Sequence record: PP759150 | Strand: one strand, 5' to 3' | Length of the DNA stretch: 44,661 bases | DNA from: Escherichia phage HH3 | In this document: one piece after another, positions 1,737 to 31,804 of the stretch | Position numbering within the stretch: the stretch's first letter is position 1 | How the letters are laid out: each line of letters begins with the position of its first letter | The notes under the pieces: generated by a model | Told to the model about the DNA's origin: nothing | Seen by the model: only the letters and a program-made list of their open reading frames with translations | Databases searched by the model: none | Translations under genes and position numbers: made by a program

Positions 1737-2008
1737 TTTATTGGTTTGGTTTGATCTGCGGGCTGTGCCTGCTTACAGCGGTGCTGTTGGGCGTCCTGAT
1801 GTTCGTAGTGTGGCCCGCCGTGGAAGCCGCCAGCATTACCCGCATGACGTTCGAGATATACAAGCGCCGTGGAATCACGGAGCACCCGCCCCGGCTTCGG
1901 ATGTGGTGGCTGTGGTATCGGGATATGATAGGCGGTCGAACATTCGAAGCCGTCCGATCATCCGGGTGGGAGTGGAAAGGCGTCGGCAAGTGGTCCATTT
2001 TCGATTAA
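1721..2008 (+). CDS. small membrane protein (95 aa, one N-terminal transmembrane segment)
   Basis: Hydrophobic stretch WFGLICGLCLLTAVLLGVLMFVVWPAV. Confidence 0.5.
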   Translation: MLHDVIYWFGLICGLCLLTAVLLGVLMFVVWPAVEAASITRMTFEIYKRRGITEHPPRLRMWWLWYRDMIGGRTFEAVRSSGWEWKGVGKWSIFD

Positions 2009-2060
2009 TTATGCAAGCGTGATATAGTCCCAGTGAGATAAAACTTACTGGGACTTTTTT

Positions 2061-2351
2061 ATGGATAAGCTAAACGAGTGGCTATTCGCCCTGGCATGTC
2101 TGGCGGGTGGCTTCGTAGGCGCACGCATTCATGGCGATGCTACGAAGGGGCCGCTAAACTTCGTTTTGTATGTCGTAGTTGGCTTCCTGTGTGCCATATT
2201 TGGCGCACCGGCTATTGCCGAGTGGGCTGGTTTGTCGGGGGAGCGCACTGTCGCCGGTTTGGGCTTCGTAACCGCAATCTTCTGGATGCCAATCGCCGAC
2301 CGGATCAGGGAGACTATTGCGTCGTTCCGACTTCCGGGAGGTGCAAAATGA
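2061..2351 (+). CDS. holin-like membrane protein (96 aa)
   Basis: Two to three hydrophobic segments; immediately upstream of the endolysin; ATGA overlap with next gene. Confidence 0.6.
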   Translation: MDKLNEWLFALACLAGGFVGARIHGDATKGPLNFVLYVVVGFLCAIFGAPAIAEWAGLSGERTVAGLGFVTAIFWMPIADRIRETIASFRLPGGAK

Positions 2352-2593
2352 TTATCTCCGTCCTGTTGTTTGTTATCATCGGGGCTTCGTCCCTGTTTAA
2401 CGTGTATGCGCCGTCCGTCCAGGATGGCATTTTCGGTCGGGTGCTGTATCTGCTAACGGCAATGGTCTGTATTATCGGATTGTTGCAAACAGGAGACGTA
2501 TCTGATACCACCTGGACCGCGTTAATCTGGCTGTTTGCATTGCGCACCCTGCGTAATGCTGTTTTGAATGAGGTAAAACATGCGATTCAGTGA
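2348..2593 (+). CDS. small membrane protein, holin or antiholin partner (81 aa)
   Basis: Strong RBS gggagg; two hydrophobic segments; C-terminal part of track ORF 2078-2593, which I consider N-terminally over-extended. Confidence 0.5.
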   Translation: MIISVLLFVIIGASSLFNVYAPSVQDGIFGRVLYLLTAMVCIIGLLQTGDVSDTTWTALIWLFALRTLRNAVLNEVKHAIQ

Positions 2594-3071
2594 CAACGGT
2601 CTAAGATTCACGGCAGCATGGGAGGCTTTCAGCCCGGTGCCGTATTTCGCGACCAAGAAAGAGCAGGCCCGCGGCCTGTACACCTGGGGTTATGGTCATA
2701 CAGGCACTAATCCGCCTCGAAGCATTACCCGCGAGGAAGCGCTGGCACTGCTCAAGCGCGATGTGGCGTATGCCGAGGCTTGGGTGAACAAATACGCGCA
2801 TAAGAGCATTAACCAGGCGCAATTCGACGCGCTGGTGGACCTGGTAATCAACGCCGGTCCTGGCCCGATCGTACCGGATGACGTCGCCGGTGACTTCGAC
2901 GATGCTGTCCGCCTGGGTGACTGGGCAAAAGTCCGGGCTACACTGCCACAATTCCGCAAGCAAGGCGGGGAAGTGCTTAAGGGTCTGGTACGCCGTGCAA
3001 TCGGCAGACAGGCGTTATTTGATGGTAAGCAGTGGGACGTTGCCGAGCGAATCGGTCGTAACGCTGCATAA
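2580..3071 (+). CDS. endolysin, glycoside hydrolase family 24 (T4-lysozyme-like)
   Basis: Motif region ...KKEQARGLYTWGYGHTG... matches the GH24 lysozyme catalytic-region pattern; follows holin-like genes. Confidence 0.8.
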   Translation: MRFSDNGLRFTAAWEAFSPVPYFATKKEQARGLYTWGYGHTGTNPPRSITREEALALLKRDVAYAEAWVNKYAHKSINQAQFDALVDLVINAGPGPIVPDDVAGDFDDAVRLGDWAKVRATLPQFRKQGGEVLKGLVRRAIGRQALFDGKQWDVAERIGRNAA

Positions 3072-5490: not shown

Positions 5491-6875
5491 TGCGTAACTA
5501 TGCGGCAGAACATCGCGCACTGGAACGCGCGATCGCAAAGCGCAACCGACCGCCACGCCCTACACGCGTTGCGCAGGCCGTCCGCCTTTACCAACCTGAT
5601 TGCCTTCCGCACCAGGTCGAACTATTGCGCGACACGAAGACTAAAATCCTCGGCCTGTGTTCCGGCTTCGGTGGTGGAAAGTCGTGGGTCGCTGCGCGTA
5701 AGGTCATCCAGCTTTTAACCCTGAACCCAGGCCATGACGGCATCGTGACCGAACCGACTATTCCACTCCTGGTTAAAATCATGTATCCGGAACTGGAGAA
5801 GGCATTCGACGAGGCTGGCTTCCGGTGGAAGTTCAATAAGCAGGACAAGATCTACAACGTGCTGGTGAAAGGCAAATGGACCCGCGTTATATGTGAATCA
5901 ATGGAGAATTATACCCGCCTGATCGGGGTCAACGCCGCGTGGATTGTTGCCGATGAATTCGACACCACTAAGCAAGACGTTGCTATGGCGGCATATCACA
6001 AATTGCTCGGTCGTCTGCGTGCTGGCTTCGTCCGCCAGTTCGTCATCGTGTCAACGCCTGAAGGCTACCGGGCGATGTACCAAATTTTCGAGGTGGAGAA
6101 AGACAACCAGAAACGCTTGATCCGGGCGAAGACCACGGACAACCACCATTTACCGGCAGACTTTATCGACACGCTGCGCAGTCAGTACCCGGCTAACCTG
6201 ATCGACGCGTACCTGAACGGCCTGTTTGTTAACCTTACGTCGGGCGCGGTGTACAAGATGTTCAACCGCGAGGAGAACGCCAGCACCGAAGAAGTGAAGC
6301 CGGACGACACGCTGATTATCGGTATGGACTTTAACGTCACGAAGATGGCGGCGGTTGTGTACGTCAGACGGCAGCGAGTCACCGAGAACAAGGAGTTCCG
6401 TGACGAGATTCACGCGGTGGATGAATTTGTGGACCTGTTTGACACCCCGGCTATGATTGAGGCGATCGAAGAGCGCTACCCGGAACATTGTGCCGCCGGT
6501 AGGGTCGTCGTTTACCCGGATAGCAGTGGCAAGTCCCGCAAAACGGTTAACGCGTCGTCGTCCGATATCGCACAACTGGAAGACGCTGGCTTTGATGTGG
6601 AATATGACAGCGTTAACCCGCCAGTGAAAGACCGATTGATCGCGATGAATACGATGATGTGCAACTCGAAGGGGGTGCGCCAGTATTTTGTCAACCTGGA
6701 TAAATGCCCTACACTAGCGAAATGTCTGGAACAGCAGGTGTATGACCTGAAGAAAGGCGAACCGGATAAGACCGCCGGTGTGGACCACATGAATGACGCG
6801 GCTGGCTACCCTATTGCGCACTTGTTCCCTGTGATTCGTCCGATCGCCGTTGTTCCAACCGTAGACTTCTACTAA
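5490..6875 (+). CDS. terminase large subunit (461 aa)
   Basis: Walker A-like LCSGFGGGKSW near N-terminus; size and position before portal. Confidence 0.85.
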   Translation: MRNYAAEHRALERAIAKRNRPPRPTRVAQAVRLYQPDCLPHQVELLRDTKTKILGLCSGFGGGKSWVAARKVIQLLTLNPGHDGIVTEPTIPLLVKIMYPELEKAFDEAGFRWKFNKQDKIYNVLVKGKWTRVICESMENYTRLIGVNAAWIVADEFDTTKQDVAMAAYHKLLGRLRAGFVRQFVIVSTPEGYRAMYQIFEVEKDNQKRLIRAKTTDNHHLPADFIDTLRSQYPANLIDAYLNGLFVNLTSGAVYKMFNREENASTEEVKPDDTLIIGMDFNVTKMAAVVYVRRQRVTENKEFRDEIHAVDEFVDLFDTPAMIEAIEERYPEHCAAGRVVVYPDSSGKSRKTVNASSSDIAQLEDAGFDVEYDSVNPPVKDRLIAMNTMMCNSKGVRQYFVNLDKCPTLAKCLEQQVYDLKKGEPDKTAGVDHMNDAAGYPIAHLFPVIRPIAVVPTVDFY

Positions 6876-6886
6876 GGAAACCGACC

Positions 6887-8407
6887 ATGACCGTTAACGT
6901 TGACAACCAGCACCCGCTCTATGCGCGCATCGCGCCAGAGTGGAAAATGATCCGTGACTGCGTAGCAGGGGAGCGCGCCGTGAAGGCGTGCGGCCCATTA
7001 TACCTGCCACACCCCGCAAGCGGCGACACCACCGACCCTAAATCGCGTGCGCGTTATAAGGCGTATAAGCAGCGCGCCGTCTTCCTGAACGCCACCGCCC
7101 GAACCCTTAACGCACTGTTAGGTGTCGCCTTCGCCAAACCGGTGAGTCTCGACCTTTCCGGGGCAATGGCTGACCTGATTGATGACGTCGACGGCAGTGG
7201 TATGCCGCTGCCGCAACTCCTGCGCGGTGCTATGTCGGAAGTGCTGCAATCAGGCCGTGCGGGCTTTATGGTGGACTACGATCGCCAGGCGCATTTTGAT
7301 GAACTTGGTAACGTAGTGCCGCAGACAGCCGCTGAGATGGCGTCACACCGCCCGCTTATCCGCCTGTACACGGCTGAACAGATCATCAACTGGCGGCAGA
7401 CACACGGTGTCGACACGCTAATCGTGCTGAAGGAAACGGACGAAATCAGCACCGAAGACCCGGACGACTTCGCAAACCACGAGGTAACCATCTGGACCGA
7501 GCTTCGCATGATTGACGGCAAGGCACATGCCCGCCGCTGGTTTTACAACGCGGACACGTCCGAGGTGCAAATGGACTTGCCGCGGGGATTCACCCGCACC
7601 GACCTTGTACCACTGGTGGATGCCGCTGGTAACGCGCTTACGCAACTGCCTTTCTGTTGGTGTGGCGCGGTGGATAACAATGCAACACCAGATGCAGCAC
7701 CGCTGGCGGATATAGCGTCCATCAACATTAAGCACTACAACGCCGAAGCAGACGTCGCCGAGATTGCGCACATCGTGGGTCAACCTACACTCATTGCGAC
7801 GGGTCTGACCCAATCATGGGCGGATAAAAACCTGAAGGGCGGGATCGCACTCGGGGCAACTAAGGGCGTTATCCTGGGCCAGAACATGGACGCTAAACTG
7901 CTTCAGGCGGAGGAGAGAAACCTGTCAGTTGCGCTGTGTGAGCGACGCGAGTTGCAAATGGCTAAACTGGGAGCGGCCCTGGTCGAGAAGGGGACCGCAC
8001 CTAAGACGGCAACTGAAGCAGCCTACGATGCGCAGACTGATAACAGTATCCTGTCACTGATTGCCGGTAACGTTGAGAAGGCTTTCAACCGTGCGCTGCA
8101 AATCGTCAAGCTGTTCACTGGCGACACCGCAGATCAACGCGTAACGCTGAATAAGTTCTACACCGAGATCACGGTTGATGCACAGCTTATGACCGCGATG
8201 ATGGCGGGTGTGCAGACCGGTACGGTCCGTCTGGCGGACTTTATCAAGTGGATGATGGCCCAGGGCGTTATCGATGACTCGCAAACCGTTGAGCAGGTGG
8301 AAGACGAATTGCGAAATCAGAATCCATTGCCTCAAATGTCACCGGATGCGGTAGAATCTACCGAAGAAGACCCGGACAAGGTAGCGGACAATGGCGAAGA
8401 CAATTAA
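6887..8407 (+). CDS. portal protein (506 aa)
   Basis: Size and position immediately after TerL; acidic C-terminal tail. Confidence 0.75.
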   Translation: MTVNVDNQHPLYARIAPEWKMIRDCVAGERAVKACGPLYLPHPASGDTTDPKSRARYKAYKQRAVFLNATARTLNALLGVAFAKPVSLDLSGAMADLIDDVDGSGMPLPQLLRGAMSEVLQSGRAGFMVDYDRQAHFDELGNVVPQTAAEMASHRPLIRLYTAEQIINWRQTHGVDTLIVLKETDEISTEDPDDFANHEVTIWTELRMIDGKAHARRWFYNADTSEVQMDLPRGFTRTDLVPLVDAAGNALTQLPFCWCGAVDNNATPDAAPLADIASINIKHYNAEADVAEIAHIVGQPTLIATGLTQSWADKNLKGGIALGATKGVILGQNMDAKLLQAEERNLSVALCERRELQMAKLGAALVEKGTAPKTATEAAYDAQTDNSILSLIAGNVEKAFNRALQIVKLFTGDTADQRVTLNKFYTEITVDAQLMTAMMAGVQTGTVRLADFIKWMMAQGVIDDSQTVEQVEDELRNQNPLPQMSPDAVESTEEDPDKVADNGEDN

Positions 8408-9494
8408 TCAATATATGGCGGATCGAATGATTCGCCGACACATCTTCACCCAGCGCCTGAGTAATGACCAGGCGCGAAGGGTGCTGTCCATGTGGGGGAA
8501 GTTCCGGCCTACATTACTGGGAAAGCTGACTGAGTTACTTGATGGCAAATCGTCAATGAATAACAAGGCACTTTCCACTCTGTTAACGCAAATCGACAAG
8601 ACTGTTAAAGCAGAATTGCGCACCGAGTTTAAGGCGTTGGCTGAAAGCCTTCAGGAGTTTGCCGACACCGAGGCCGATTATCTCGCCGACACATTAACGG
8701 CAGCGATCCAGCCGGTGGTCGCCGTACCTGCGGTCGAGGTGGTTGGCGTAGTGACCGGTGCGCAGATCGCAGCGACTGCGATGAAGAACCCGTTCCAGGG
8801 TAATACTATGATGCAATGGCCTGACTCACTTTCTGAGTGGACCAGGACGCAGATCGGTAATCAGGTGCGGGCGGGATTCATCCAGGGCAAGCCAACGATG
8901 GAAATTATAGCGGACGTGAGGCGCGCACTCGGCGGTCGTAGTGCGCAAGCTATCTCAAGCGTTGTTAAGTCCGCAGTCAACCACTATGCGGCGACAGCCC
9001 GCGAATTAATGGTGAAAGCTAATGACGATATTCTCGAAGGTCGCCAATGGTTATCTACATTGGACACGCATACTTCTCCCATGTGCCAGCTACGCGATCG
9101 CCTGTTTTATCCGGTTGATGTTACTCCCGACACCAAAGGAAAGCGCGGCGGGAAAATGGTGGCTGGGTCACAATATGGCGCTGGGCCGGGCAAGTTGCAT
9201 TATTGTTGCCGGTCTACGGAGACGTGGAAGGTTAAAGGCATGGAAGATTGGCCCAGTGGTAAGCGTCCGGCACTAAAGGCTGACGCGGGCAGATTGCTGA
9301 GTGAGCAGGTTGACGCGCAGACTGATTTCTTCTCATGGGTGCAGCGCCAGCCGCGCCATATCCTGGAAGAGTTATACGGAGTGCAACGCGCCGACCAGAT
9401 TATGCGCGGCGTGAAAGTGCCGAAGATGTTCACCGATTCCGGCGAACTAATGACTATCGCACAGCTTAAAAACCGGGGGTTATGGCGTGATTAA
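8391..9494 (+). CDS. head morphogenesis protein (Mu gpF / SPP1 gp7-like minor head protein)
   Basis: Follows portal; contains the GKLHYCCRS Cys motif typical of the Mu F-like domain. Confidence 0.65.
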   Translation: MAKTINQYMADRMIRRHIFTQRLSNDQARRVLSMWGKFRPTLLGKLTELLDGKSSMNNKALSTLLTQIDKTVKAELRTEFKALAESLQEFADTEADYLADTLTAAIQPVVAVPAVEVVGVVTGAQIAATAMKNPFQGNTMMQWPDSLSEWTRTQIGNQVRAGFIQGKPTMEIIADVRRALGGRSAQAISSVVKSAVNHYAATARELMVKANDDILEGRQWLSTLDTHTSPMCQLRDRLFYPVDVTPDTKGKRGGKMVAGSQYGAGPGKLHYCCRSTETWKVKGMEDWPSGKRPALKADAGRLLSEQVDAQTDFFSWVQRQPRHILEELYGVQRADQIMRGVKVPKMFTDSGELMTIAQLKNRGLWRD

Positions 9495-9816
9495 GTATGC
9501 GGCTATTGGGCTGGTTATAGGTCTGGCGGTAGGATTCTGGCTAGGTGACTCCTATCGCGCTGGCGTAGTGGCGGAGGCGGCGCAAGAAGCGCAAGCCGAA
9601 GCACAACGGCAGCAAACTAAAGTTGTTGAGCGCTCCGTGCAGGCAGAACAAGCCCGCGACGTGGAATACCGGACTATCACGAAAGAGGTTGTAAAATATG
9701 TTACGCGCCCTAACCGCCCTGATTGTAGTTTTGATGCTGAGCGCGTGCGGATCAAGCAACGTGCCGTTGATGCCGCTAACGGAGTCGGCACTGCGACCGC
9801 CGTGCAAGTTCGATAG
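9487..9816 (+). CDS. Rz-like i-spanin (109 aa)
   Basis: N-terminal transmembrane anchor IGLVIGLAVGFWLG followed by charged coiled-coil region. Confidence 0.6.
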   Translation: MIKYAAIGLVIGLAVGFWLGDSYRAGVVAEAAQEAQAEAQRQQTKVVERSVQAEQARDVEYRTITKEVVKYVTRPNRPDCSFDAERVRIKQRAVDAANGVGTATAVQVR

Positions 9817-9928
9817 CCCGTCCGCAGACCCCGACGAGGATTTGATGATTGACGTGAAAAATATGGAATGCGGGGCGAAGCTAAGGGCGCAGGTGCTGGA
9901 GTTGCAGCAAATAATTAAGGGGCCGTAA
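9698..9928 (+). CDS. Rz1-like o-spanin lipoprotein (76 aa), overlapping Rz in another frame
   Basis: Signal peptide with lipobox LSAC, Pro-rich mature part; out-of-frame overlap with Rz-like gene is the classic spanin arrangement. Confidence 0.6.
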   Translation: MLRALTALIVVLMLSACGSSNVPLMPLTESALRPPCKFDSPSADPDEDLMIDVKNMECGAKLRAQVLELQQIIKGP

Positions 9929-9941
9929 TGGCCCCTTTTTC
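9917..9941. terminator. bidirectional rho-independent terminator
   Basis: ggggcc-gtaat-ggcccc followed by TTTTT; lies between convergent genes. Confidence 0.7.
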
Positions 9942-9942
9942 G

Positions 9943-10707
9943 TTAGCGCGGAATGCCACAAATCTCGTTGAGTGTTTTCACGTCCAGCGCCACCGCCGTG
10001 GTTTTTGGCTTGTCCGGGTATGGGATGAATTGCTCAACTTCAGGCCATGCCTTAATCAGCTTCTTGTCAGTATTGTGCAGGTCCAGCACACCGGTAACGG
10101 TGAGTTTGAACGCATCAAACTTCGCGCGCAACTCGCGACGGGCATTGTCGTTTCGGTCCAAGCGCTTACAGAAGTCATGGCCCGCCGGGTAGTCTACGCG
10201 ACCGCGAGGAAGATATATCGGCAGCGCTTTCCCGTCCTCGTCAACTTCGCACACTGACGCGAGCATAACTGTCTCGAACCCCGGAACGATATCGCCGAGA
10301 TCAGGCGCGAGCTTATTCATATATTTCTCTTCCCAGTATCCTCGATGTACGCGGTATTGGCGACCGTCACCGCTCAAGGACAAGGTGCGAACATTTCCGC
10401 CTGCGTTGATTTCGAAAGTGGCGTCGTAAACGCTGCCGATACCTTTCGGGCGGTCGGTGTTATAACTATACGTCGCCTTGTTGGTGTATACGCTGACGCC
10501 GTACATCTGCGACTGGTCATCGCGGATTGACAGGATATGCTCGCGTAGCGCGGCGAATGTGCGAATGCCGTCCGGCATACAGTCCAGCGTGATTGCGTAC
10601 GCCAGGTCGCGAGAGTCCATCATGATTGTTTTGGCTTCGGTAGCGATTTCGTGGTCGCGCAGGATGTTAGCCAGGATCTGATTTTTAATGTCTTTCGTCA
10701 GTCTCAT
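9943..10707 (-). CDS. hypothetical protein (254 aa), second gene of antisense cassette
   Basis: Minus-strand ORF inside plus-strand morphogenesis block; no motif recognised. Confidence 0.6.
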   Translation of the reverse strand: MRLTKDIKNQILANILRDHEIATEAKTIMMDSRDLAYAITLDCMPDGIRTFAALREHILSIRDDQSQMYGVSVYTNKATYSYNTDRPKGIGSVYDATFEINAGGNVRTLSLSGDGRQYRVHRGYWEEKYMNKLAPDLGDIVPGFETVMLASVCEVDEDGKALPIYLPRGRVDYPAGHDFCKRLDRNDNARRELRAKFDAFKLTVTGVLDLHNTDKKLIKAWPEVEQFIPYPDKPKTTAVALDVKTLNEICGIPR

Positions 10708-10746
10708 TTTTATGTCCTCATTTTAGGGGCTTTCGCCCCGATTGGT

Positions 10747-11061
10747 TTAGTTGAATTTGATGTTGCCACCGGTGGAAGTTAAGCGAGCACATACAGCTTC
10801 AACGGCATCGACGCACATGAAATCGTTAAAGGCTTCGACCAGGGCGTTTATGAAAGATGCCGGAACCAGGCAGCAAGCCGGATTATCGAATGTAGCGGAG
10901 TTGATCGCCGCTTTTGCCGCTTCAGAAGCATTCATGCTCTGGCACAGATTCAGCGCTTCCGCGTTACGCATTGCGTGAAAGGTAAAGGTATTCGCTACGG
11001 TAGCTTTATTGAAACGGGCCATTGCGGCGTCTACTGGAGTTGCTACGGTCATGTTAGTCAT
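10747..11061 (-). CDS. hypothetical protein (104 aa), first gene of antisense cassette
   Basis: Start chosen at ATG 11061 with strong RBS aaggaag; track ORF is extended to 11121. Confidence 0.5.
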   Translation of the reverse strand: MTNMTVATPVDAAMARFNKATVANTFTFHAMRNAEALNLCQSMNASEAAKAAINSATFDNPACCLVPASFINALVEAFNDFMCVDAVEAVCARLTSTGGNIKFN

Positions 11062-11085
11062 TTTGTCTTCCTTCATATCTCTGTT

Positions 11086-11115
11086 GGTGTGCAACCAATA
11101 TAAAGCAACCAACAT
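11086..11115. promoter_or_regulatory. Divergent control region with two TTGGTTGC copies (minus-sense reading TTGGTTGCTTTATATTGGTTGCACACCAACAGAG)
   Basis: Motif copies at 11089-11100 and 11106-11113 between minus gene 10747-11061 and plus scaffold gene. Confidence 0.45.
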
Positions 11116-11215
11116 CCGCAATGCAAGCGAATTTTGCGATTATTTTTATCGCTGATAATATTAAGGCGTGAAGTCAAGCGGGTGGCCCGCTTTGCCACAA
11201 TCCCAGGGGGATAGC

Positions 11216-11920
11216 ATGAAACTTACTAAAGCAGAATATGACGCGTTGCCGGAAGGTATGAAGGCGCTTTTTGTCGCCGATGGCGACGGGTACAAATCAA
11301 CGTTCATGACCGCCGAAGAAGTACAGGCGGAGATCAAGGGTCTGAAAGACAACAACGCGAAGCTGGTTAGCGAGAAGAAAGCAGAAGCCGAACGTCGCGC
11401 CGAAGCCGAGCGCATCGCGAAAGAGAAAGAGGAAGCCGCCGCGCGCAAAAATGGCGACCTCGAAGCGATCGATAAGTCCTGGAAAGATAAGTTCGCGAAA
11501 CACGAAGCAGACACATCAGGGAAAATCGAAGCCTATCGCAAGCAGATCCACGACCTAACCATCGGCAGCGCTGCCAAAGATTTGGCCTCGAAGCTGTTCG
11601 GTAAGAATGCCGGCATCATGCAACGCCACGTTATGGACCGCCTCACGCTGGAAGACGGAGAAGACGGCAGCCTGAAGGTGCGGGTATTGAAGGATGGCAA
11701 ACCGTCCGCGCTGACTATGGACGAACTGGAGAAAGAATTCCGTAGTAACGCCGATTTTGCATCCGTCCTGGCGGGCACGCCAGCCGGTGGTGCGCCGAGC
11801 AAACCGACGCAGGTCGTAGAAGATGTGAAGTCGAAAATCACTATGGGCCACAGCTTCGGTATCACTGACTTGACGAAACAGGCCGGGGATATCATCGCTA
11901 AAATGGGCGACGACGAGTAA
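11216..11920 (+). CDS. scaffolding protein (start at ATG 11216; track ORF begins at GTG 11168)
   Basis: RBS aggggg; Ala/Glu/Lys-rich coiled-coil sequence; directly upstream of major capsid gene. Confidence 0.6.
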   Translation: MKLTKAEYDALPEGMKALFVADGDGYKSTFMTAEEVQAEIKGLKDNNAKLVSEKKAEAERRAEAERIAKEKEEAAARKNGDLEAIDKSWKDKFAKHEADTSGKIEAYRKQIHDLTIGSAAKDLASKLFGKNAGIMQRHVMDRLTLEDGEDGSLKVRVLKDGKPSALTMDELEKEFRSNADFASVLAGTPAGGAPSKPTQVVEDVKSKITMGHSFGITDLTKQAGDIIAKMGDDE

Positions 11921-12017
11921 GCAGATCGCCCGCGAAAGCGGGCGATTTTGCGAGCGCGTAATTCTAAGGTAACATTAACGGTACTGGGCGAATGCTCACA
12001 ACTCAAAGGATTTCGAT

Positions 12018-13118
12018 ATGTCTTTAACAGTGTTCCAGCGTAAACTCGTCACCGCGGTTACGCAAATGATCCCTGATAACCTGAACGTGTTCAACGCTGC
12101 CGCTAACGGTGCTGTTGTTCTCGGCACGGGTGAAGTGCTGAAGGACGTTGTAGAAAAAATGTCCGTAGGCTTGATCGCCAACCTCGTTACCGACCGTAAC
12201 GCCTATGCCCCTGTTGGTACACCGGCAACCGCAAAAGTGCTGGCGCGTATGCTGACCAACTCGGTTAACCTTTCCGCGAAAGTGGGTCCGGTTGCGATCA
12301 CGAAGGCCATGATGGCTAAGATCGAAACCAACGTTAACAGCGTTGCGGCTGAGATTGCGGCACAGGCTACTCAAGCGATTATGCTGCATTACCTCAAAGC
12401 TGGTATCGGTGCGGGCAAAGCCGCTATTGAAAGCAACTCAGCGGCAAACTACACCCAACCTGCTCGCGTCGATGGCGTTGGTGGTCGTACCTTCCCGACC
12501 CTGGCAGACTTCCCGCTGGCGGCTTCTAAGTTTGGCGATCAGGCGTCTTTAATTAAATCCTGGTTTATGGACGGCGTTACCTGGGCTAACTTCATTGCTT
12601 ACCAGGCGCTTCCTTCCGCCGAGCAGGTATTCGCGATCGGCGATCTGCAGGTAATGGGCGATGGCCTGGGCCGCCGTTTCATTATCTCCGATGCCGCTGC
12701 CGATGCAATGGGTGCTGGTAAAATGCTGGGTCTGGTCCCTGGCGCGGTTGCAGTTACCACCAATGGCCTTGATATGCTGGCGCAAGAAAAAGGCGGTAAC
12801 GAGAACATTGAGCGCTGGTGGCAGGGCGAGTTCGACTTCAACGTGGCTGTTAAAGGCTATCGTCTGAAGGCGTCCGCTCGTACTCCGATCGAAGGTGTTC
12901 GCTCGTTCAAACTGGACGATATTACCACTTCCGCTAACTGGGAACTGGACCAGGGCCAGGTAGACAACGCACCGGCAACCGTGCAGGACGTGGGCACTGT
13001 TGGTGATGGCGATACCAAAGGCCGTCGTAAGACCCAGGCCGCACAGGCAGTGCCTACCCGTCACATCAAGGAAACGGCGGGCGTACTGGTTACTCTGACG
13101 GCGACCACAGCGTCCTAA
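12018..13118 (+). CDS. major capsid protein (366 aa)
   Basis: Position after scaffold, size, followed by a strong terminator. Confidence 0.7.
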   Translation: MSLTVFQRKLVTAVTQMIPDNLNVFNAAANGAVVLGTGEVLKDVVEKMSVGLIANLVTDRNAYAPVGTPATAKVLARMLTNSVNLSAKVGPVAITKAMMAKIETNVNSVAAEIAAQATQAIMLHYLKAGIGAGKAAIESNSAANYTQPARVDGVGGRTFPTLADFPLAASKFGDQASLIKSWFMDGVTWANFIAYQALPSAEQVFAIGDLQVMGDGLGRRFIISDAAADAMGAGKMLGLVPGAVAVTTNGLDMLAQEKGGNENIERWWQGEFDFNVAVKGYRLKASARTPIEGVRSFKLDDITTSANWELDQGQVDNAPATVQDVGTVGDGDTKGRRKTQAAQAVPTRHIKETAGVLVTLTATTAS

Positions 13119-26310: not shown

Positions 26311-26337
26311 AGCCCCTCATTCGAGGGGCTATCTTTT
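26311..26337. terminator. bidirectional rho-independent terminator
   Basis: agcccctc-attc-gaggggct followed by ATCTTTT. Confidence 0.65.
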
Positions 26338-26578
26338 AATAATCAATGACGCAGTTTGATGGGGAACCAATCCTGCGGTGTTCGTGGCTAATCTCCTGGC
26401 ACCACTGACCGGTATATGGTAGCTTTTCGGTATCGTAAACCAAAGACCCGTCTTCATGTCGCTCAATAGGATGAGGTATTACACCCGAATTTGGAACGCC
26501 TGTGTTTAAGCCATTGCCACATGCTGTCATTAGAAGGCACGCCGCGGGTATTATCAGATTTTTGATTAAAGTTTTCAT
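26336..26578 (-). CDS. small lipoprotein (80 aa), candidate receptor-blocking superinfection exclusion protein
   Basis: Strong RBS ggagatga; signal peptide MKTLIKNLIIPAACLLMTAC with lipobox Cys; encoded antisense between J-like gene and tail fiber gene. Confidence 0.55.
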   Translation of the reverse strand: MKTLIKNLIIPAACLLMTACGNGLNTGVPNSGVIPHPIERHEDGSLVYDTEKLPYTGQWCQEISHEHRRIGSPSNCVIDY

Positions 26579-26658
26579 GGTATCATCTCCTGTATTGGGT
26601 TGAGTTTTAGTATTACACCGCTCAACCAAGAATGCAACCAATTTAAGAGGATTCAGCT

Positions 26659-28980
26659 ATGGCAGCGGGTACGCTCTCCGTAACGAACAATAGCAAGGCG
26701 GTAGTAGGGGTTGGCACAACGTTTACCGCGTTCAAGGCTGGCGACTTTCTGTCGCTGGTAGTGGGGCAAGCCCCTTACACAATCGCAATTTCATCCATTG
26801 AAAGCGACACTGCGCTAACGCTGGTGCTGCCGTTCGACGGCCCAACGGCAACGGGACTCGCCTGGGACGGCATCAAACGTGACACCATGTCACTGGCAAC
26901 GATGGGCGTAACCGTACAGGCACAGAAAGCATTGCGCTTGATGATTGCAGATGAAAACAACTGGCGTGCAATCTTCGGCGACGCTGAAGAAATCACAGTC
27001 ACACTCCCGAACGGGCAGGTTATGCAGGGCATGTCATGGGGCTATCTGTCGCAGTTGATGAAGGAAATCGACCCCGTTGAGATGCGCAACCTGCAACAAC
27101 AAGCCGCTGCGGCGGAGGCTGCCGCGCAGGGGTTTTGCAATGAGGCCGAAGGCTTCAAAAACGACACCAATACCATCAAGACGCAGACCGACCAGATTAA
27201 GACTGATACGCAGGCCATCAAAGACCAGACGAACCAGATTAAGACTGACACCGGCGTTATGAGGGACGAGGCCAACACCGCGAAGACGGACGCGCAAGCT
27301 GCCAGCGCCGCCGCGCAGGGCTTCCGCGATCAGGCCGAAGAATTGGCGCAAAGCATAAACCCAGATAACCTGCTAACCAAATCCGGCAACCTGGCAGGAC
27401 TCACCGACAAACCGCAAACCTGGCTTAACGTTCGCCCGGACGGGGCGACGCCACTGGCGGGCGACCCAGTAGGTGACTACGACGCCGCGACAAAGCGTTG
27501 GGTAGAGAACCTGATTAACACAGGTACTGTCGGGCCTACTATGAACGGCGTGATGAACTACGGTGTAGGTCAGGTTACGCTGTGGCATTCTCGCGCGTTC
27601 ATTCCGTCTTACGCAGTTGTTGCAGACGGCCAGTTGTTGTCACGTACAGCTTACCCTGAACTGTGGGCACATGCTCAGATGCACAACCCTATCAACGACA
27701 GCGTATGGTTAACGGGTAGCGGCAATCGCGCTAAATTCTCAACAGGTGACGGTAGTACCACGTTCCGTGTACCGGACCTCAACGGTGTTCAAGCTGGGTC
27801 GCCGGCGAATCTTTTCGGGCGCGGGTCCAACGGGTCCAGTAATTTGCTACCCGGTACAACCTTGGAAAGTGCGTTACCTGATATCGCAGGTGAAAGCCCT
27901 TCGACTCTGATTCGTTACGTCGACGCAGCTTCTGCGGCGTTTCGGACTACGGAGGTAAGTACTTACGGTTACGGCTCGGATACAAACAACGCGCCTATCA
28001 AGTGGAAGCAGCTGAGCTTCCGGGCCTCACGGTCATCTCCTGTTTACGGTCGCTACAATACGACCGAGGTTGTACCGAACTCTTTCGTCGGCGTATGGAT
28101 TATCCGCGCATCTGGCGGCTTCGTGGCGGCAAATACGTCGTGGTCGGTAATTAACGGTGACGCGTCTCGTCCGGCAGACGGGACGACAGCTGATGGCGGT
28201 CGCGTAATTTCGAAGTACCAGGTTAACGGAGTTGATGAAGCTATCACATCTCTTCAAGTGATGGCCCAAATTGGCGGTAAATATTATACCAGGTTGGCCG
28301 TTGAAAATGCCACGTCAAGTAATGTTGCTTGGTATGATTTTAATGAGGATGGCGGATTTTCGGCTGGCTCAATAAACTCTGCTGATAAAGTAACAGCAAA
28401 TGGACCGTTTTACTCAAGGGGTAATGGATACCCAAGCATTTGCTTTTTGTCTGATAGATACAACAATCCAAACACAAACATAGGCGCGATCACAGTCTTG
28501 GAATGCACAGGCACTGATGGAAACGTATCAACCGTCAACTTAATCAGAAGGCGGGGGGATGGAAGTCATACAGGGCAGGTGACTGTGAAATTCCCGACTA
28601 CAACAGGAACATTAGCACTGCAAGGAACATCGGGCCGCGAGTATAAGAAAGACATTGCCGATGCGGACGCAAGCGAAGCTATGGACCGCATTAACAGCCA
28701 GCGCCTTGTTAACTTCGTGTATAAGGATGATGCGCAAGCCCGCCAGCGCTTCGGTATTATCGCCGAGGAAGCGGAGTTAATTGCGCCGCAGTACGTTAAG
28801 CACCACGAGTTCCCGATCGAGGATATTCTCGACGAAGACGGCAACAAGATCGGGGAGAAAATGACGGACCGCCCATCCATCGACGTTAACCCTATCGTCA
28901 TGGATTTGATGGGATGTGTTCAATATCTCAATAAGCAGGTGGAGGATTTGAAGGCCGAGATCGCGGCGTTGAAGAAATAA
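26659..28980 (+). CDS. tail fiber protein with C-terminal intramolecular chaperone (peptidase S74-like) domain, 773 aa
   Basis: RBS aagagg; C-terminal ~150 aa resemble self-cleaving chaperone domains of endosialidase / L-shaped tail fibers; Thr/Gln-rich repeats at 27140-27300. Confidence 0.7.
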   Translation: MAAGTLSVTNNSKAVVGVGTTFTAFKAGDFLSLVVGQAPYTIAISSIESDTALTLVLPFDGPTATGLAWDGIKRDTMSLATMGVTVQAQKALRLMIADENNWRAIFGDAEEITVTLPNGQVMQGMSWGYLSQLMKEIDPVEMRNLQQQAAAAEAAAQGFCNEAEGFKNDTNTIKTQTDQIKTDTQAIKDQTNQIKTDTGVMRDEANTAKTDAQAASAAAQGFRDQAEELAQSINPDNLLTKSGNLAGLTDKPQTWLNVRPDGATPLAGDPVGDYDAATKRWVENLINTGTVGPTMNGVMNYGVGQVTLWHSRAFIPSYAVVADGQLLSRTAYPELWAHAQMHNPINDSVWLTGSGNRAKFSTGDGSTTFRVPDLNGVQAGSPANLFGRGSNGSSNLLPGTTLESALPDIAGESPSTLIRYVDAASAAFRTTEVSTYGYGSDTNNAPIKWKQLSFRASRSSPVYGRYNTTEVVPNSFVGVWIIRASGGFVAANTSWSVINGDASRPADGTTADGGRVISKYQVNGVDEAITSLQVMAQIGGKYYTRLAVENATSSNVAWYDFNEDGGFSAGSINSADKVTANGPFYSRGNGYPSICFLSDRYNNPNTNIGAITVLECTGTDGNVSTVNLIRRRGDGSHTGQVTVKFPTTTGTLALQGTSGREYKKDIADADASEAMDRINSQRLVNFVYKDDAQARQRFGIIAEEAELIAPQYVKHHEFPIEDILDEDGNKIGEKMTDRPSIDVNPIVMDLMGCVQYLNKQVEDLKAEIAALKK

Positions 28981-28984
28981 ATAA

Positions 28985-29009
28985 AAGGGGCCATGCGGCC
29001 CCTTTTTTA
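28985..29009. terminator. bidirectional rho-independent terminator
   Basis: ggggcc-atgc-ggcccc followed by TTTTTT, A-run on the other side. Confidence 0.75.
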
Positions 29010-29582
29010 GTTTGAGTTTTCCCAGTCCATTTTGCGCCGCACCAGCGGGCTTTCGTAATATTCTTTACCCTCAACTTCCACTAAAGGCCAGTCATTAACA
29101 ATCACGTACGGCTCCGCGATATCTTCAATAACTCCGTGCGCGCTTTGCGGCCCTAACGACACACCAACCAGGATAACACCGGCAACGCGACGGGTCAGAT
29201 ATTCGCGAGCGCAACGAGCCTCTACCAGTCCGCGACGGATGCCGCTGGTGGCTTTAACCTCGTAGGTCCAGACGGCATCAATCATGTGCTCTTTGTAGTC
29301 GGGACCGGATTTTACCTTGCGCTTGCCGACCATGATAATATCGCCGCGGTCGATAGTGTTAGCGCTAAACAGGCCCGTACGCATGAGTAAGCCTTGCGGG
29401 ATACAACTTCGACCGCCTGCCTGCCCTTCGAGGTACATGCCTGCAAACATTTCGCCCAGCACACCGACAAGACGGCTTTGCTTGCACGCGTCAGACTTGT
29501 ATCGCCACTGGTCAAACTCGATGCTTGCTATCATTGCCGCCAGGTGGAATTGTTTACCAGATATTTCGTATTCGCCGTACAT
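29007..29582 (-). CDS. hypothetical protein (191 aa), possible PD-(D/E)xK-type nuclease
   Basis: RBS gaggga; weak GDII ... DAVWTYEVK motif pattern. Confidence 0.5.
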   Translation of the reverse strand: MYGEYEISGKQFHLAAMIASIEFDQWRYKSDACKQSRLVGVLGEMFAGMYLEGQAGGRSCIPQGLLMRTGLFSANTIDRGDIIMVGKRKVKSGPDYKEHMIDAVWTYEVKATSGIRRGLVEARCAREYLTRRVAGVILVGVSLGPQSAHGVIEDIAEPYVIVNDWPLVEVEGKEYYESPLVRRKMDWENSN

Positions 29583-29623
29583 TGTGGATCCCTCATTGAT
29601 GCGGGCCGAAGCCCGCGATTAAA

Positions 29624-30133
29624 TTATTTAAGTGCGCCAGTCACCAGTGTTTTTTCCATGTTACGGAAATCTTCCTGCGTCATGCAGATTTTCGATCCGT
29701 CTTCACCGGTTAGCACGACCATAGGCTGGACGTCCTGGGCTACAACTCCAAAATTGGCGGCTGTAACCGTTTTACCGGGGGTAAATGCGCCGCCTGTTTT
29801 GACGGGCCAACCTTTGAGGCTATCGAATTGTGCTGCCGTTGTATCGATCTGAATCTCGTCATGCACGGTCATGTAAGACTCGCCCAGCAGGGCGGCATAC
29901 GCCACCAGATCCACGATGTTATCTTCCTGGTGCTTACGGTGCTGGCGCACCAGCTTCAGGCAGATCAGGAAGGTCCAGGCTTCTTGCTCGGTAAGGTCGC
30001 GCCCGGTAAGCGCGTTAAACACGGCAGCGATTTGTTTAGCGCTGCGTTCTTCTTTCGCGTTGTCATAGCCGTTTTCTTTCCCGCGCTGTTCCATAGTGGT
30101 GGCGGCGTTTTTGCAGTATTCGTATGCTTTCAC
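29624..30133 (-). CDS. hypothetical protein (start uncertain, GTG 30133 or ATG 30094)
   Basis: Track ORF runs to 30214 but would read through the palindromic operator and hairpin; trimmed. Confidence 0.4.
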   Translation of the reverse strand: MKAYEYCKNAATTMEQRGKENGYDNAKEERSAKQIAAVFNALTGRDLTEQEAWTFLICLKLVRQHRKHQEDNIVDLVAYAALLGESYMTVHDEIQIDTTAAQFDSLKGWPVKTGGAFTPGKTVTAANFGVVAQDVQPMVVLTGEDGSKICMTQEDFRNMEKTLVTGALK

Positions 30134-30191
30134 AGTATTACCCTTTTTTTTTAGCGAGGGGGCGGTATTGCCCCCGACACGTTTACTATAG

Positions 30192-30213
30192 TGCAACCAA
30201 CCTATTGGTTGCA
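30192..30213. promoter_or_regulatory. Perfect palindrome TGCAACCAA-ccta-TTGGTTGCA (full dyad of the recurrent 9-mer)
   Basis: Read directly; overlaps the last codons of the HAD-like gene and precedes the next minus gene; followed by hairpin 30156-30178. Confidence 0.7.
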
Positions 30214-30672
30214 AGTGAATTTTGCAACGTTTATTGCGTAAATTTTCGGGACCAAATCACCACACGCCCGACGAATTGCCGCGATGTTCTTCTCGCAATC
30301 TTCAATGATGACCAGTTCAGACACGTCCGCGTAACATACCATTTTGAACACGGCGCACGCTTTAAACTCTGGCGGCGGGGTGTCGTCCAGCATGTGGCGC
30401 ATAAACAACCTGCCTACCGGGAAGACCTCCAATTGCTCGGCGGTGGTGTCCCAACATTCTCGCTGCCGGTTGGTCAGATACGCGATCTCGAAGCCTTGCT
30501 CTTTATACATGCGCAGTAGCGGCAGCATATCCATGTTAAGGTCTTCGCGGACGTGCGCTTTGTGCCACTTCGCCCAGAAGGTGGATTTAGTTTTTATGCC
30601 CGGCACCAGGTCGGCACGCGCATCGCTTGACCCATTAATAACGCCATCCAGATCACAAATCAGTAATTTCAT
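30202..30672 (-). CDS. HAD-superfamily hydrolase (phosphatase-like), 156 aa
   Basis: N-terminal motif LLICDLDGVI (HAD motif I DxDG). Confidence 0.65.
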   Translation of the reverse strand: MKLLICDLDGVINGSSDARADLVPGIKTKSTFWAKWHKAHVREDLNMDMLPLLRMYKEQGFEIAYLTNRQRECWDTTAEQLEVFPVGRLFMRHMLDDTPPPEFKACAVFKMVCYADVSELVIIEDCEKNIAAIRRACGDLVPKIYAINVAKFTCNQ

Positions 30673-30893
30673 TTCAATTCCTCAATAAGGGTGTATCGGG
30701 CGCTGCGCGCGGTTAAGGAGTTGCACACGAAATGGCAACGCCGAGTCATGACAAGCCAACCGGTGAGGTCAAGGCCCAGGATGTATTCGGGGCGAGACGC
30801 GCGCACCACACGATTGCGTCGCGGGTCGATGTTATAGTCTCTTAGCATTTGGTCTACGACCGCGGGGTCGCGGTCAACGATTAAGATATTCAT
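30669..30893 (-). CDS. hypothetical protein (74 aa)
   Basis: ORF, ATGA coupling with the HAD gene. Confidence 0.4.
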   Translation of the reverse strand: MNILIVDRDPAVVDQMLRDYNIDPRRNRVVRASRPEYILGLDLTGWLVMTRRCHFVCNSLTARSARYTLIEELK

Positions 30894-31359
30894 GTAACTC
30901 ACTCTCGCTCATTATTTCAATTTGTGCGCTGCCGATGGGCGGCGCTTCGTCAAATATTATTAATTGCTGGCACTTGTTATTGCTCGGACCGACTTCGCCG
31001 GTGGCGGCGTGAATGAATCTAATCCGCCAGTCCAGAAGAATTATCATATTGGCGGTATTCCGGGCCAGCTTCGCCCACTTAGTCGACGTGTCCTGATTCA
31101 GTAGCATGACGGTCCGGCGTCCGTGCGCTGCGCACTCGACCCACGGCAGCGGATCGGAATACGGCGGATTGCACCACTTCCACCCTTTCAACTCTGCCCA
31201 GTCCACATCAAGCGCGCTGTGCTCTGCCGTGAAGTAACGCGGTAGAAGGTGGTTGGCGTCGCTTGCCGCCATATCGTAACGGAATCGGTATTTCCGACGA
31301 AGCGGTTTAAATAACGCTGGCGGCGTGCGCCAGCTATCTTTTTGCTCATTCTTCGTCAT
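30874..31359 (-). CDS. DNA N6-adenine methyltransferase (phage Dam-type), 161 aa
   Basis: Catalytic motif NPPY in WKWCNPPYSDPLPW; N-terminal WRTPPALF pattern typical of small phage Dam enzymes. Confidence 0.8.
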   Translation of the reverse strand: MTKNEQKDSWRTPPALFKPLRRKYRFRYDMAASDANHLLPRYFTAEHSALDVDWAELKGWKWCNPPYSDPLPWVECAAHGRRTVMLLNQDTSTKWAKLARNTANMIILLDWRIRFIHAATGEVGPSNNKCQQLIIFDEAPPIGSAQIEIMSESELHEYLNR

Positions 31360-31804
31360 GGTCGGGGGCTATCGCGTACAGGGCGATATTGTTGCCTTTC
31401 TTCAGGACCCGCTGCACGCGCTTTGACTCCTCGGCGCTCATAGGGCGACCATGAAAATAGCCATTTGTGGGATTGCGCCACGCCACAAGCACCAGATCTT
31501 TACGGTCGATCTTAGACTGGCTACCCTTCGGACGCACGTACTCCTCGGCCCGTTTGCAATGCTCGCGCAGACCTTCGGCAGTGATGCGGTTTAGCGAGAC
31601 GGTGGTGGTGTATCCGGTGCGCTGCATAATACCCATCAATTTGAAAAGCAGTTCGAAGCGCTCCTCTAGCTCCTTGCGCATCTTTTCCTCGCCTTCATAG
31701 CTCGCCAGGTAGGTATCCGCCAACGCGTTCGCCCGTTCGGCTTGCTCGCGGGCTTCGAGGCATTGCGCGGCCCAGTAATCTTTTTCTTCTTGTAAAATTT
31801 TCAT
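31346..31804 (-). CDS. hypothetical protein (152 aa)
   Basis: ORF in replication block. Confidence 0.5.
   Translation of the reverse strand: MKILQEEKDYWAAQCLEAREQAERANALADTYLASYEGEEKMRKELEERFELLFKLMGIMQRTGYTTTVSLNRITAEGLREHCKRAEEYVRPKGSQSKIDRKDLVLVAWRNPTNGYFHGRPMSAEESKRVQRVLKKGNNIALYAIAPDHDEE

Follow-up and report, generated by a model that had tools for sequence, protein, structure and literature searches.

Two leftward genes interrupt the rightward head-gene block of Escherichia phage HH3, and we consider it likely that they form an accessory operon of early type, non-structural in function and composed of a variable cargo slot and the conserved gene nmad5. The window, by which we mean the whole 44,661-nucleotide stretch of DNA analysed (sequence record PP759150), is identified by its sequence as Escherichia phage HH3, a member of the genus Dhillonvirus: region 9000-12500 was 94-96% identical to many Dhillonvirus genomes, and the protein of 254 amino acids (aa) encoded there was 100% identical to a protein of HH3. 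A preliminary description of this DNA had proposed that the two genes make up a moron-like cassette and, together, one candidate system. The accessory nature of the unit was upheld, in that the genes lie in a lineage-specific, self-contained and non-structural unit of the head module, one product of which is genetically tied to the anti-phage defence Tmn; the notion of a pair was not.

Boundaries and predicted regulatory signals of the unit

At its downstream end, the unit stops at a bidirectional intrinsic terminator. A hairpin at 9917-9937, previously placed at 9917-9941, was scored as a terminator on both strands by the terminator scan, with folding energies of about -15 kcal/mol each (-15.4 and -15.9 kcal/mol), and is common to the rightward spanin and the leftward nmad5 transcripts. 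The Rz1 stop codon TAA (9926-9928) lies in the loop of this hairpin and the nmad5 stop codon is 6 nucleotides (nt) off. The convergent genes Rz1 and nmad5 are 14 nt apart, with a single hairpin for both.

At the upstream end, the minus strand before the 104-aa cargo gene reads GCAAAATTCGCTTGCAT-N18-TATATT. This arrangement corresponds to a predicted sigma-70-like promoter (11137-11097, minus strand), with an upstream/-35 block GCAAAATTCGCTTGCA at 11137-11122, the -35 hexamer TTGCAT at 11126-11121, a spacer of 18 nt and, at 11102-11097, the -10 hexamer TATATT that had already been noticed. Two operator-like TTGGTTGC boxes accompany it on the same strand, one within the promoter spacer (11112-11105) and the other overlapping the end of the -10 (11098-11091). 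They had been described as two copies of a 9-mer; two copies are indeed present, but the exact common word is 8 nt long. The boxes stand out by over-representation and by conservation. TTGGTTGC was found 18 times in the window against 2.1 copies expected (about 9-fold), a count that none of 100 shuffles reached, and in relatives both boxes of the unit are kept while the spacer around them varies. The copies (at 60, 151, 182, 700, 3299, 11091, 11105, 21748, 26634, 30193, 30205, 32102, 35059, 38683, 38699, 41591, 44407 and 44442) are mostly intergenic or promoter-like, occur in both arms and are often paired or arranged as an inverted pair. TTGGTTGC looks like the operator of a regulator. The promoter of the unit would be active and early.

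The same signals were seen elsewhere in the genome. TTGGTTGCACACCAACA, found before the nmad5 unit, is also present upstream of the gene at 212-502, and five TTGGTTGC copies lie between the primase-helicase gene and this gene. The pattern TTGCAW-N16-19-TATWNT has two occurrences only in the genome, here and at 30214-30185. The second belongs to a promoter twin (30225-30185, minus strand) that carries the 16-nt block in identical form, GCAAAATTCACTTGCA, TTGCAA-N18-TATAGT, a TTGGTTGC box in the spacer and an inverted copy of the box. Two hypothetical genes read leftward (about 29624-30133 and 29007-29582) lie downstream of this twin, just past the tail-fibre gene, so that the regulon may include another accessory unit here. 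The TTGGTTGC box at 26634 lies in the intergenic region adjoining a small minus-strand open reading frame (26336-26641), located inside the rightward late block at the position of a Cor-like superinfection-exclusion gene annotated in SSL-2009a. Because of this further reading frame, the statement that the late region is otherwise plus-strand is nearly, but not entirely, right.

The gene order around the unit was the same as in the annotated relatives YD-2008.s and SSL-2009a, namely terminase, portal, head morphogenesis, Rz, Rz1, a pair of hypothetical genes read leftward, scaffold and major head protein. Both minus-strand reading frames reported between the spanin and scaffold genes were present and are real genes; their products matched Pfam Nmad5 and phrog_1965 (254 aa) and phrog_24635 (104 aa). 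In the sister genus Eiauvirus (eiAU-183), the scaffold gene comes directly after the head-morphogenesis gene with no insert at the junction, and the spanin genes and the Nmad5 homologue are located elsewhere in the genome. In Dhillonvirus, this junction is filled by Rz/Rz1 and the leftward unit, with one terminator common to them. The flanking genes in the window are Rz (9487-9816), Rz1, which encodes the o-spanin (9698-9928), and scaffold (11216-11920), all on the plus strand. Composition gave no clear anomaly: the G+C content of the unit was 0.526 compared with 0.52-0.55 in the adjacent bins; within the left arm, the 10-11 kb bin alone had a negative AT skew. An Rfam search of 9400-11700 returned no match.

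Nmad5 and its relation to Tmn

The gene nmad5 (9943-10707, minus strand, ATG start) encodes the 254-aa protein. No motif had been recognised in either protein by the preliminary description, and for this one the statement did not hold: it is a full-length Pfam Nmad5 protein (PF18757; E 1.3e-57, with 195.7 bits where the curated gathering threshold is 27, and with positions 1-206 of the 206 in the profile covered), previously studied in Dhillonvirus. The family comprises 2784 clusters (50% identity, E <= 0.001), and conservation was computed on 151 diverse sequences sampled from it. The conserved positions are R2-L3-T4, G104, G113, P167, T213-x3-L217-x3-W221-P222-E223, P229 and, at the extreme C-terminus, L246-N247-x3-G251-L-P253. 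They are mostly hydrophobic residues or Gly/Pro, grouped at both termini, and reach 100% at N247, 99% at W221 and P222 and 98% at L217. The family signature (N-terminal M-R-L-T, G104, G113, T213-x3-L217-x3-W-P-E and C-terminal L-N-x3-G-L/I-P) is entirely present in the window protein.

An AlphaFold model of Nmad5 (pLDDT 76.8, pTM 0.73) predicted a confident helical bundle, formed by N-terminal helices and a long C-terminal helix, with a small β-sheet; the low-confidence parts are a lineage-specific insertion and the linker before the terminal motif. Comparison of this model with solved structures revealed nothing beyond generic helical hairpins, and comparison with viral models (BFVD) retrieved own family members only. 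For both proteins of the unit, no PDB sequence scored below E 0.7 when searched with profiles, and PADLOC and NCBIfam gave no match.

About 156 Dhillonvirus records, marked by their head-morphogenesis protein, were considered. Nmad5 was present in about 149 of them (about 95%), so that the sporadic presence implied by the word moron does not apply to this gene. Its identity between genomes was 83-86%, against 96-98% for the portal, head-morphogenesis and capsid proteins of the same genome pairs, a divergence like that of scaffold and spanins. In one record, SM_S24 (PP920554; 1501-2055 of the stretch examined), about 240 bp are naturally deleted, and with them Nmad5 residues from about 173 to 249, including the whole C-terminal signature. 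Rz1 and the terminator are intact in this viable isolate, which has been reported as Tmn-inhibited. The deletion provides independent evidence that nmad5 is dispensable.

Genetic data on nmad5 are available for two other Dhillonviruses. Tmn-escape mutants of these phages bore one and the same change in nmad5, numbered K216E in SM_A8 and K296E in SM_S22; reverting the mutation restored Tmn sensitivity and introducing it led to escape (Yamashita 2025, Commun Biol 8:290, PMC11846954). In the same study, a phage deleted for nmad5 was viable and remained sensitive to Tmn, attempts to clone the gene failed, apparently owing to toxicity, and Nmad5 was termed a DNA-modification enzyme (PMC11846954). 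The nmad5 of SM_S22 and SM_A8 corresponds to that of HH3 both as a gene and in its location by the scaffold and capsid genes, with about 86% protein identity, and the SM_A8 protein has the same length of 254 aa. A 104-aa cargo gene precedes nmad5 in HH3 and SM_A8, whereas the slot is empty in SM_S22. Since HH3 has the same gene at the same place, with K216, that is the wild-type residue at the Tmn-escape position, the published facts (escape by K216E, viable deletion, toxicity) are expected to apply to it.

The different numbering of the substitution can be traced to one record. In SM_S22 (PP627283), the deposited nmad5 coding sequence has 334 aa (2006-3010 of the stretch examined), as its start is placed 80 codons further upstream, past the promoter and inside the scaffold gene of the opposite strand, and the DNA upstream of nmad5 is ordinary empty-slot sequence. 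The 334-aa length thus appears to be an annotation artefact. The extension accounts for an offset of 80 residues, making K296 equivalent to K216, and is probably also the reason why SM_A8 was called "N-terminally truncated" in the paper. Of the 151 family sequences, 132 have K, R or Q at position 216, where neither Asp nor Glu belongs to the six commonest residues. K216 adjoins L217, within the most conserved motif T213-x3-L217-x3-W221-P222-E223. K216E is therefore a charge reversal inside the signature motif, which fits the conclusion of the paper that function is gained or altered and not lost.

The Nmad families were reportedly defined by Iyer in 2013. If Nmad5 were an enzyme modifying DNA (nucleotides), as both its Pfam name and Yamashita 2025 have it, Tmn might sense modified phage DNA and the cassette would be a DNA-modification module. 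We judge this explanation distinctly unlikely, even though several observations agree with it besides the family name. The Nmad5 homologues YuA gp15 and those of SN1/M6 are located within a thymidine-hypermodification cluster, and their homology is significant (E 3e-26 for the YuA open reading frame with the profile built here); in common with HH3 they have MRLT at the N-terminus, the WPE motif and LN-x3-G-L-P at the C-terminus. One metagenomic homologue lies beside DNA methylase genes, and the polar residues R2, T213, E223 and N247 are conserved. However, the YuA, M6 and SN1 copies are co-directional with the cluster around them, which encodes a dU-hydroxymethylase homologue, a kinase, a radical-SAM enzyme and aGPT-Pplase, whereas the HH3 copy is antisense between spanin and scaffold genes. 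The association with modification genes on which the family name is based is seen in YuA and SN1 and is absent from HH3, C130_2, Susuwatari, eiAU and the metagenomic clades. The annotation of SSL-2009a, a close relative, contains no gene of a 5-hmdU pathway (no dU-hydroxymethylase, 5-hmdU kinase or aGPT-Pplase), and only two ordinary DNA methyltransferases, far off. The 5-NedU steps described for M6 used gp51-gp54, with gp55 not needed for the first product, and no Nmad5 protein was among the proteins studied (PMC8989533). In our searches, Nmad5 resembled no enzyme in fold or in sequence, and the unchanged Tmn sensitivity of the nmad5 deletion phage is a poor fit to Tmn sensing an Nmad5-made modification. 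We found no support here for the label "DNA-modification enzyme", and Nmad5 is probably not a DNA-modifying enzyme.

The genomic positions of the homologues also speak against such an enzyme, as most are among early genes without modification enzymes nearby. In eiAU-183, Nmad5 is encoded in an operon after the primase-helicase gene and before the holins (28137-31500 of the stretch examined). In C130_2 and Susuwatari, it is just upstream of the lysis genes (5975-8078 and 5572-7564 of the stretches examined, respectively), and in three metagenomic clades it is near the start of the replication operon. Nmad5 lies upstream of lysis genes in C130_2, Susuwatari and eiAU-183 and is convergent with the spanin genes in Dhillonvirus; this proximity may merely reflect a position at the end of the early operon.

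The cargo slot and its exchange

The cargo gene of HH3 (10747-11061, minus strand; phrog_24635) encodes an acidic (pI 5.1), helical protein of 104 aa. In the list of open reading frames it extended over 10747-11121, with 124 aa counted from TTG. Translation probably starts at the ATG at 11061, behind the Shine-Dalgarno sequence AAGGAAG, which gives 104 aa; an in-frame ATG 15 nt further upstream (11076) would give 109 aa, as annotated in RefSeq relatives. The cassette end at 11121 previously proposed is thus the end of a mechanically TTG-extended reading frame and not that of the gene. A structural model (pLDDT 83) predicted a small bundle of helices and, C-terminally, a hairpin. The protein had no match in Pfam, NCBIfam or PADLOC and no informative fold match.

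A DNA search with the slot and its flanks, with slot states sampled among the records, distinguished three states. The full region was found in 60 records, many others had the flanks 360 bp closer, corresponding to an exact absence, and a few had a larger or different insert. The slot was empty in most relatives. In GeorgBuechner, bob, SM_S22 and LM40P1, which have an empty slot, the promoter with both boxes is conserved and abuts the ribosome-binding site of nmad5. In such relatives, the promoter TTGCAA-N17-TATATT stands directly before nmad5, CACACCAACA is joined straight to the nmad5 ribosome-binding site and the leader is absent. An unrelated gene of 135 aa (172 aa in SM_W22) fills the slot in Zar3M, PTXU06, HK578 and SM_W22, and a gene of 53 aa does so in Dru_SM5 and EK99P-1. 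The 172-aa length of the SM_W22 cargo results from an in-frame tandem duplication of 37 residues (RKKIMETEILNWNTHAKLFNRPELVITEKFERRQAL...; 1089-1607 of the stretch examined). The cargo position is therefore an exchange site, either empty or occupied by one of at least three unrelated small genes. In the record PQ843332.1 (phage P-GXEC-L2P5, 88,607 bp), two copies of a Dhillonvirus-like locus were found, one with the 104-aa and the other with the 53-aa cargo; probably, the sequences of two phages were concatenated or mixed in the assembly of this record.

The flanks of the different cargo genes are alike. On the 5' side, the 104-aa and 135-aa cargos have the common leader GAGAyATGAAGGaAraCAArATG. 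In HH3, the leader and ribosome-binding site GAGATATGAAGGAAGACAAA occupy 11062-11081 (minus strand), and they also stand before the unrelated 135/172-aa cargo in Zar3M and SM_W22. On the 3' side, both cargos are followed by the common element CTAAACCAA-n-GGGGCGAAAGCCCC, again including the 135/172-aa cargo of Zar3M and SM_W22. Between the cargo gene and nmad5, this flank contains a hairpin GGGGC-GAAA-GCCCC with a GNRA loop (10726-10739, minus strand, -11.4 kcal/mol). As the hairpin is not followed by a U-run, it is not a terminator. The presence of two cargo types between identical flanks suggests swapping by recombination through the flanks. We also considered the cargo hairpin as a repeated element like those of promoter-early stem-loop (PeSL) cassettes; this was rejected, as GGGGCGAAAGCCCC is present once in the window. 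The promoter block is present twice.

The cargo genes are not confined to Dhillonvirus. At 90% identity or more, the 104-aa gene was found in 60 phage records, out of about 156 Dhillonvirus records. More distant copies of the 104-aa and 135-aa cargos (51-63% identity) occur in unrelated Enterobacterales phages, the 104-aa gene in the Pantoea phage AAM37 (Dibbivirus) and in Ackermannviridae, the 135-aa gene in Serratia siphoviruses and Erwinia phages such as Snitter. With lower confidence, the 104-aa gene would most likely be one that moves horizontally and serves host interaction or counter-defence. A 98%-identical copy is present in SM_A8, which is nevertheless Tmn-sensitive, so that the cargo is not an inhibitor of the Tmn variant tested. 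Its identity with the published anti-Tmn protein (ORF35) or with the Avs2 trigger Ksap1 was rejected, as both map elsewhere in the genome and SM_A8 is sensitive to Tmn. A putative His/Cys zinc site was dropped, C83 not being conserved outside Dhillonvirus. A 77-aa open reading frame at 30669-30902 (minus strand), flanked by genes for a DNA methyltransferase (30874-31359) and a phosphatase-like protein (30202-30672), has the position described for Ksap1, a 74-aa Dhillonvirus trigger of KpAvs2 (PMC11564622); the match is by position alone.

The slot also bears on the relation between the two genes of HH3. These are adjacent, on the same strand and apparently co-transcribed from one promoter to one terminator, and the reported toxicity of nmad5 cloned alone could be accounted for if the small protein were its antidote or regulator; the two might also act as a joint anti-defence pair. 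Such a two-component system is very unlikely. About 80-90 Dhillonvirus records (about 60%) have nmad5 without the 104-aa gene, the latter occurs alone in AAM37, where a profile search detected no Nmad5 (best E 0.07), and in Ackermannviridae, and unrelated genes take its place in the same slot. As each gene is found without the other, we consider the genes independent and reject the two-gene system; the PADLOC search did not detect one either. That the products are ordinary head-module proteins (decoration, internal or assembly) encoded on the opposite strand is scarcely credible: the location between the head-morphogenesis and scaffold genes and the presence of nmad5 in almost the whole genus would fit, but the engineered deletion and the natural truncation in SM_S24 are viable, the sister genus has no gene at the site, homologues lie elsewhere in early or replication operons, and a search for similarity to structural proteins found none for either protein.

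Proposed mechanism and comparison with known systems

We propose that host RNA polymerase would most likely start at the promoter at 11137-11097, with its two TTGGTTGC boxes around the -10. As TTGGTTGC boxes also mark the other promoter regions of the phage outside the late block, the unit is probably co-regulated with early/middle genes and not with the head genes. The transcript would run through the variable cargo slot, which here holds the 104-aa orphan gene, then through the GNRA hairpin and nmad5, and would stop at the bidirectional terminator common to the spanin genes. With lower confidence, Nmad5 would be a protein-binding effector made before late gene expression and acting on the host or on the infection process, possibly by binding a partner through its conserved termini. 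In the published data, escape from Tmn follows from the charge reversal at K216 and not from deletion. A more far-reaching scheme appears rather doubtful to us: Nmad5 might be a widespread early effector (about 2800 clusters), not an enzyme, whose ultra-conserved and flexibly tethered C-terminal peptide L-N-x3-G-L-P and adjacent motif T-x3-L-x3-WPE dock on a conserved bacterial target, an interaction that the membrane NTPase Tmn would sense either directly or indirectly, while the upstream slot, flanked by the leader and the GNRA hairpin, might be a dedicated exchange site where Enterobacterales phages trade small counter-defence genes.

Several points weigh against an early accessory operon with a non-enzymatic Nmad5. 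Given the conserved polar residues and a model of only moderate confidence, a novel enzyme fold is possible, and the YuA and M6-type homologues do lie inside a hypermodification cluster. A tie of Nmad5 to a replication module of PolA, Enc34 SSB and DUF2800 was suggested by the metagenomic clades, eiAU and YuA; it was dropped because C130_2 and Susuwatari have no annotated DNA polymerase. The terminator of the unit is clear, but its putative promoter, a sigma-70-like motif that is conserved and has operator-like boxes, was missed by a generic promoter scan; the scan found nothing here because the -35 TTGCAT is weak and scores 3/6 only. Finally, a counter-defence role of the cargo is deduced purely from layout and mobility.

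Dhillonviruses are common therapeutic coliphage candidates, and nmad5 is already an engineering handle to evade Tmn. If it is true that Nmad5 has no enzyme features, a protein-interaction model should replace the idea that Tmn senses modified DNA, with practical consequences for engineering. The interchangeable cargos of 104 aa, 135/172 aa and 53 aa provide a short list of orphan genes for counter-defence screening, and the slot variants offer natural, isogenic-like comparisons inside one genus. Whereas nmad5 and its link to Tmn were already known, the variable cargo slot with conserved flanks was not found in the literature searched, although it is a familiar kind of phage feature.

The product of T2 RIIB is made early to mid infection, as Nmad5 is predicted to be, and resembles it in that single substitutions abolish Tmn defence (bioRxiv 2026.03.01.708804, PMC13001434). 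The two differ in that nonsense loss-of-function mutations of RIIB escape Tmn and RIIB alone activates Tmn (PMC13001434), whereas deletion of nmad5 gives no escape, which indicates that Nmad5 is not the sole Tmn trigger. No sequence or fold similarity between Nmad5 and T2 RIIB was detected.

Lambdoid morons have their own promoter and terminator and are inserted between conserved late genes. The HH3 unit is similarly self-contained, with a predicted promoter and a terminator, within a late morphogenesis block, it is absent at this site from the sister genus and its genes are dispensable. The moron-like layout proposed in the preliminary description is thus supported by the insertion between genes that are adjacent in relatives and by the sporadic cargo, but nmad5 is fixed in the genus and the unit lacks a clear compositional anomaly. 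Moreover, as HH3 is virulent, the logic of lysogenic conversion does not apply here.

PeSL cassettes are found in the hyperplastic regions of T4-type phages. The slot described here differs from them in being a single site with a hairpin present once in the genome, and has no sequence relationship to T4 PeSLs. The likeness lies in the organisation: in both cases small orphan genes stand between a conserved early-type promoter/leader and a stem-loop, and unrelated open reading frames are exchanged between identical flanks.

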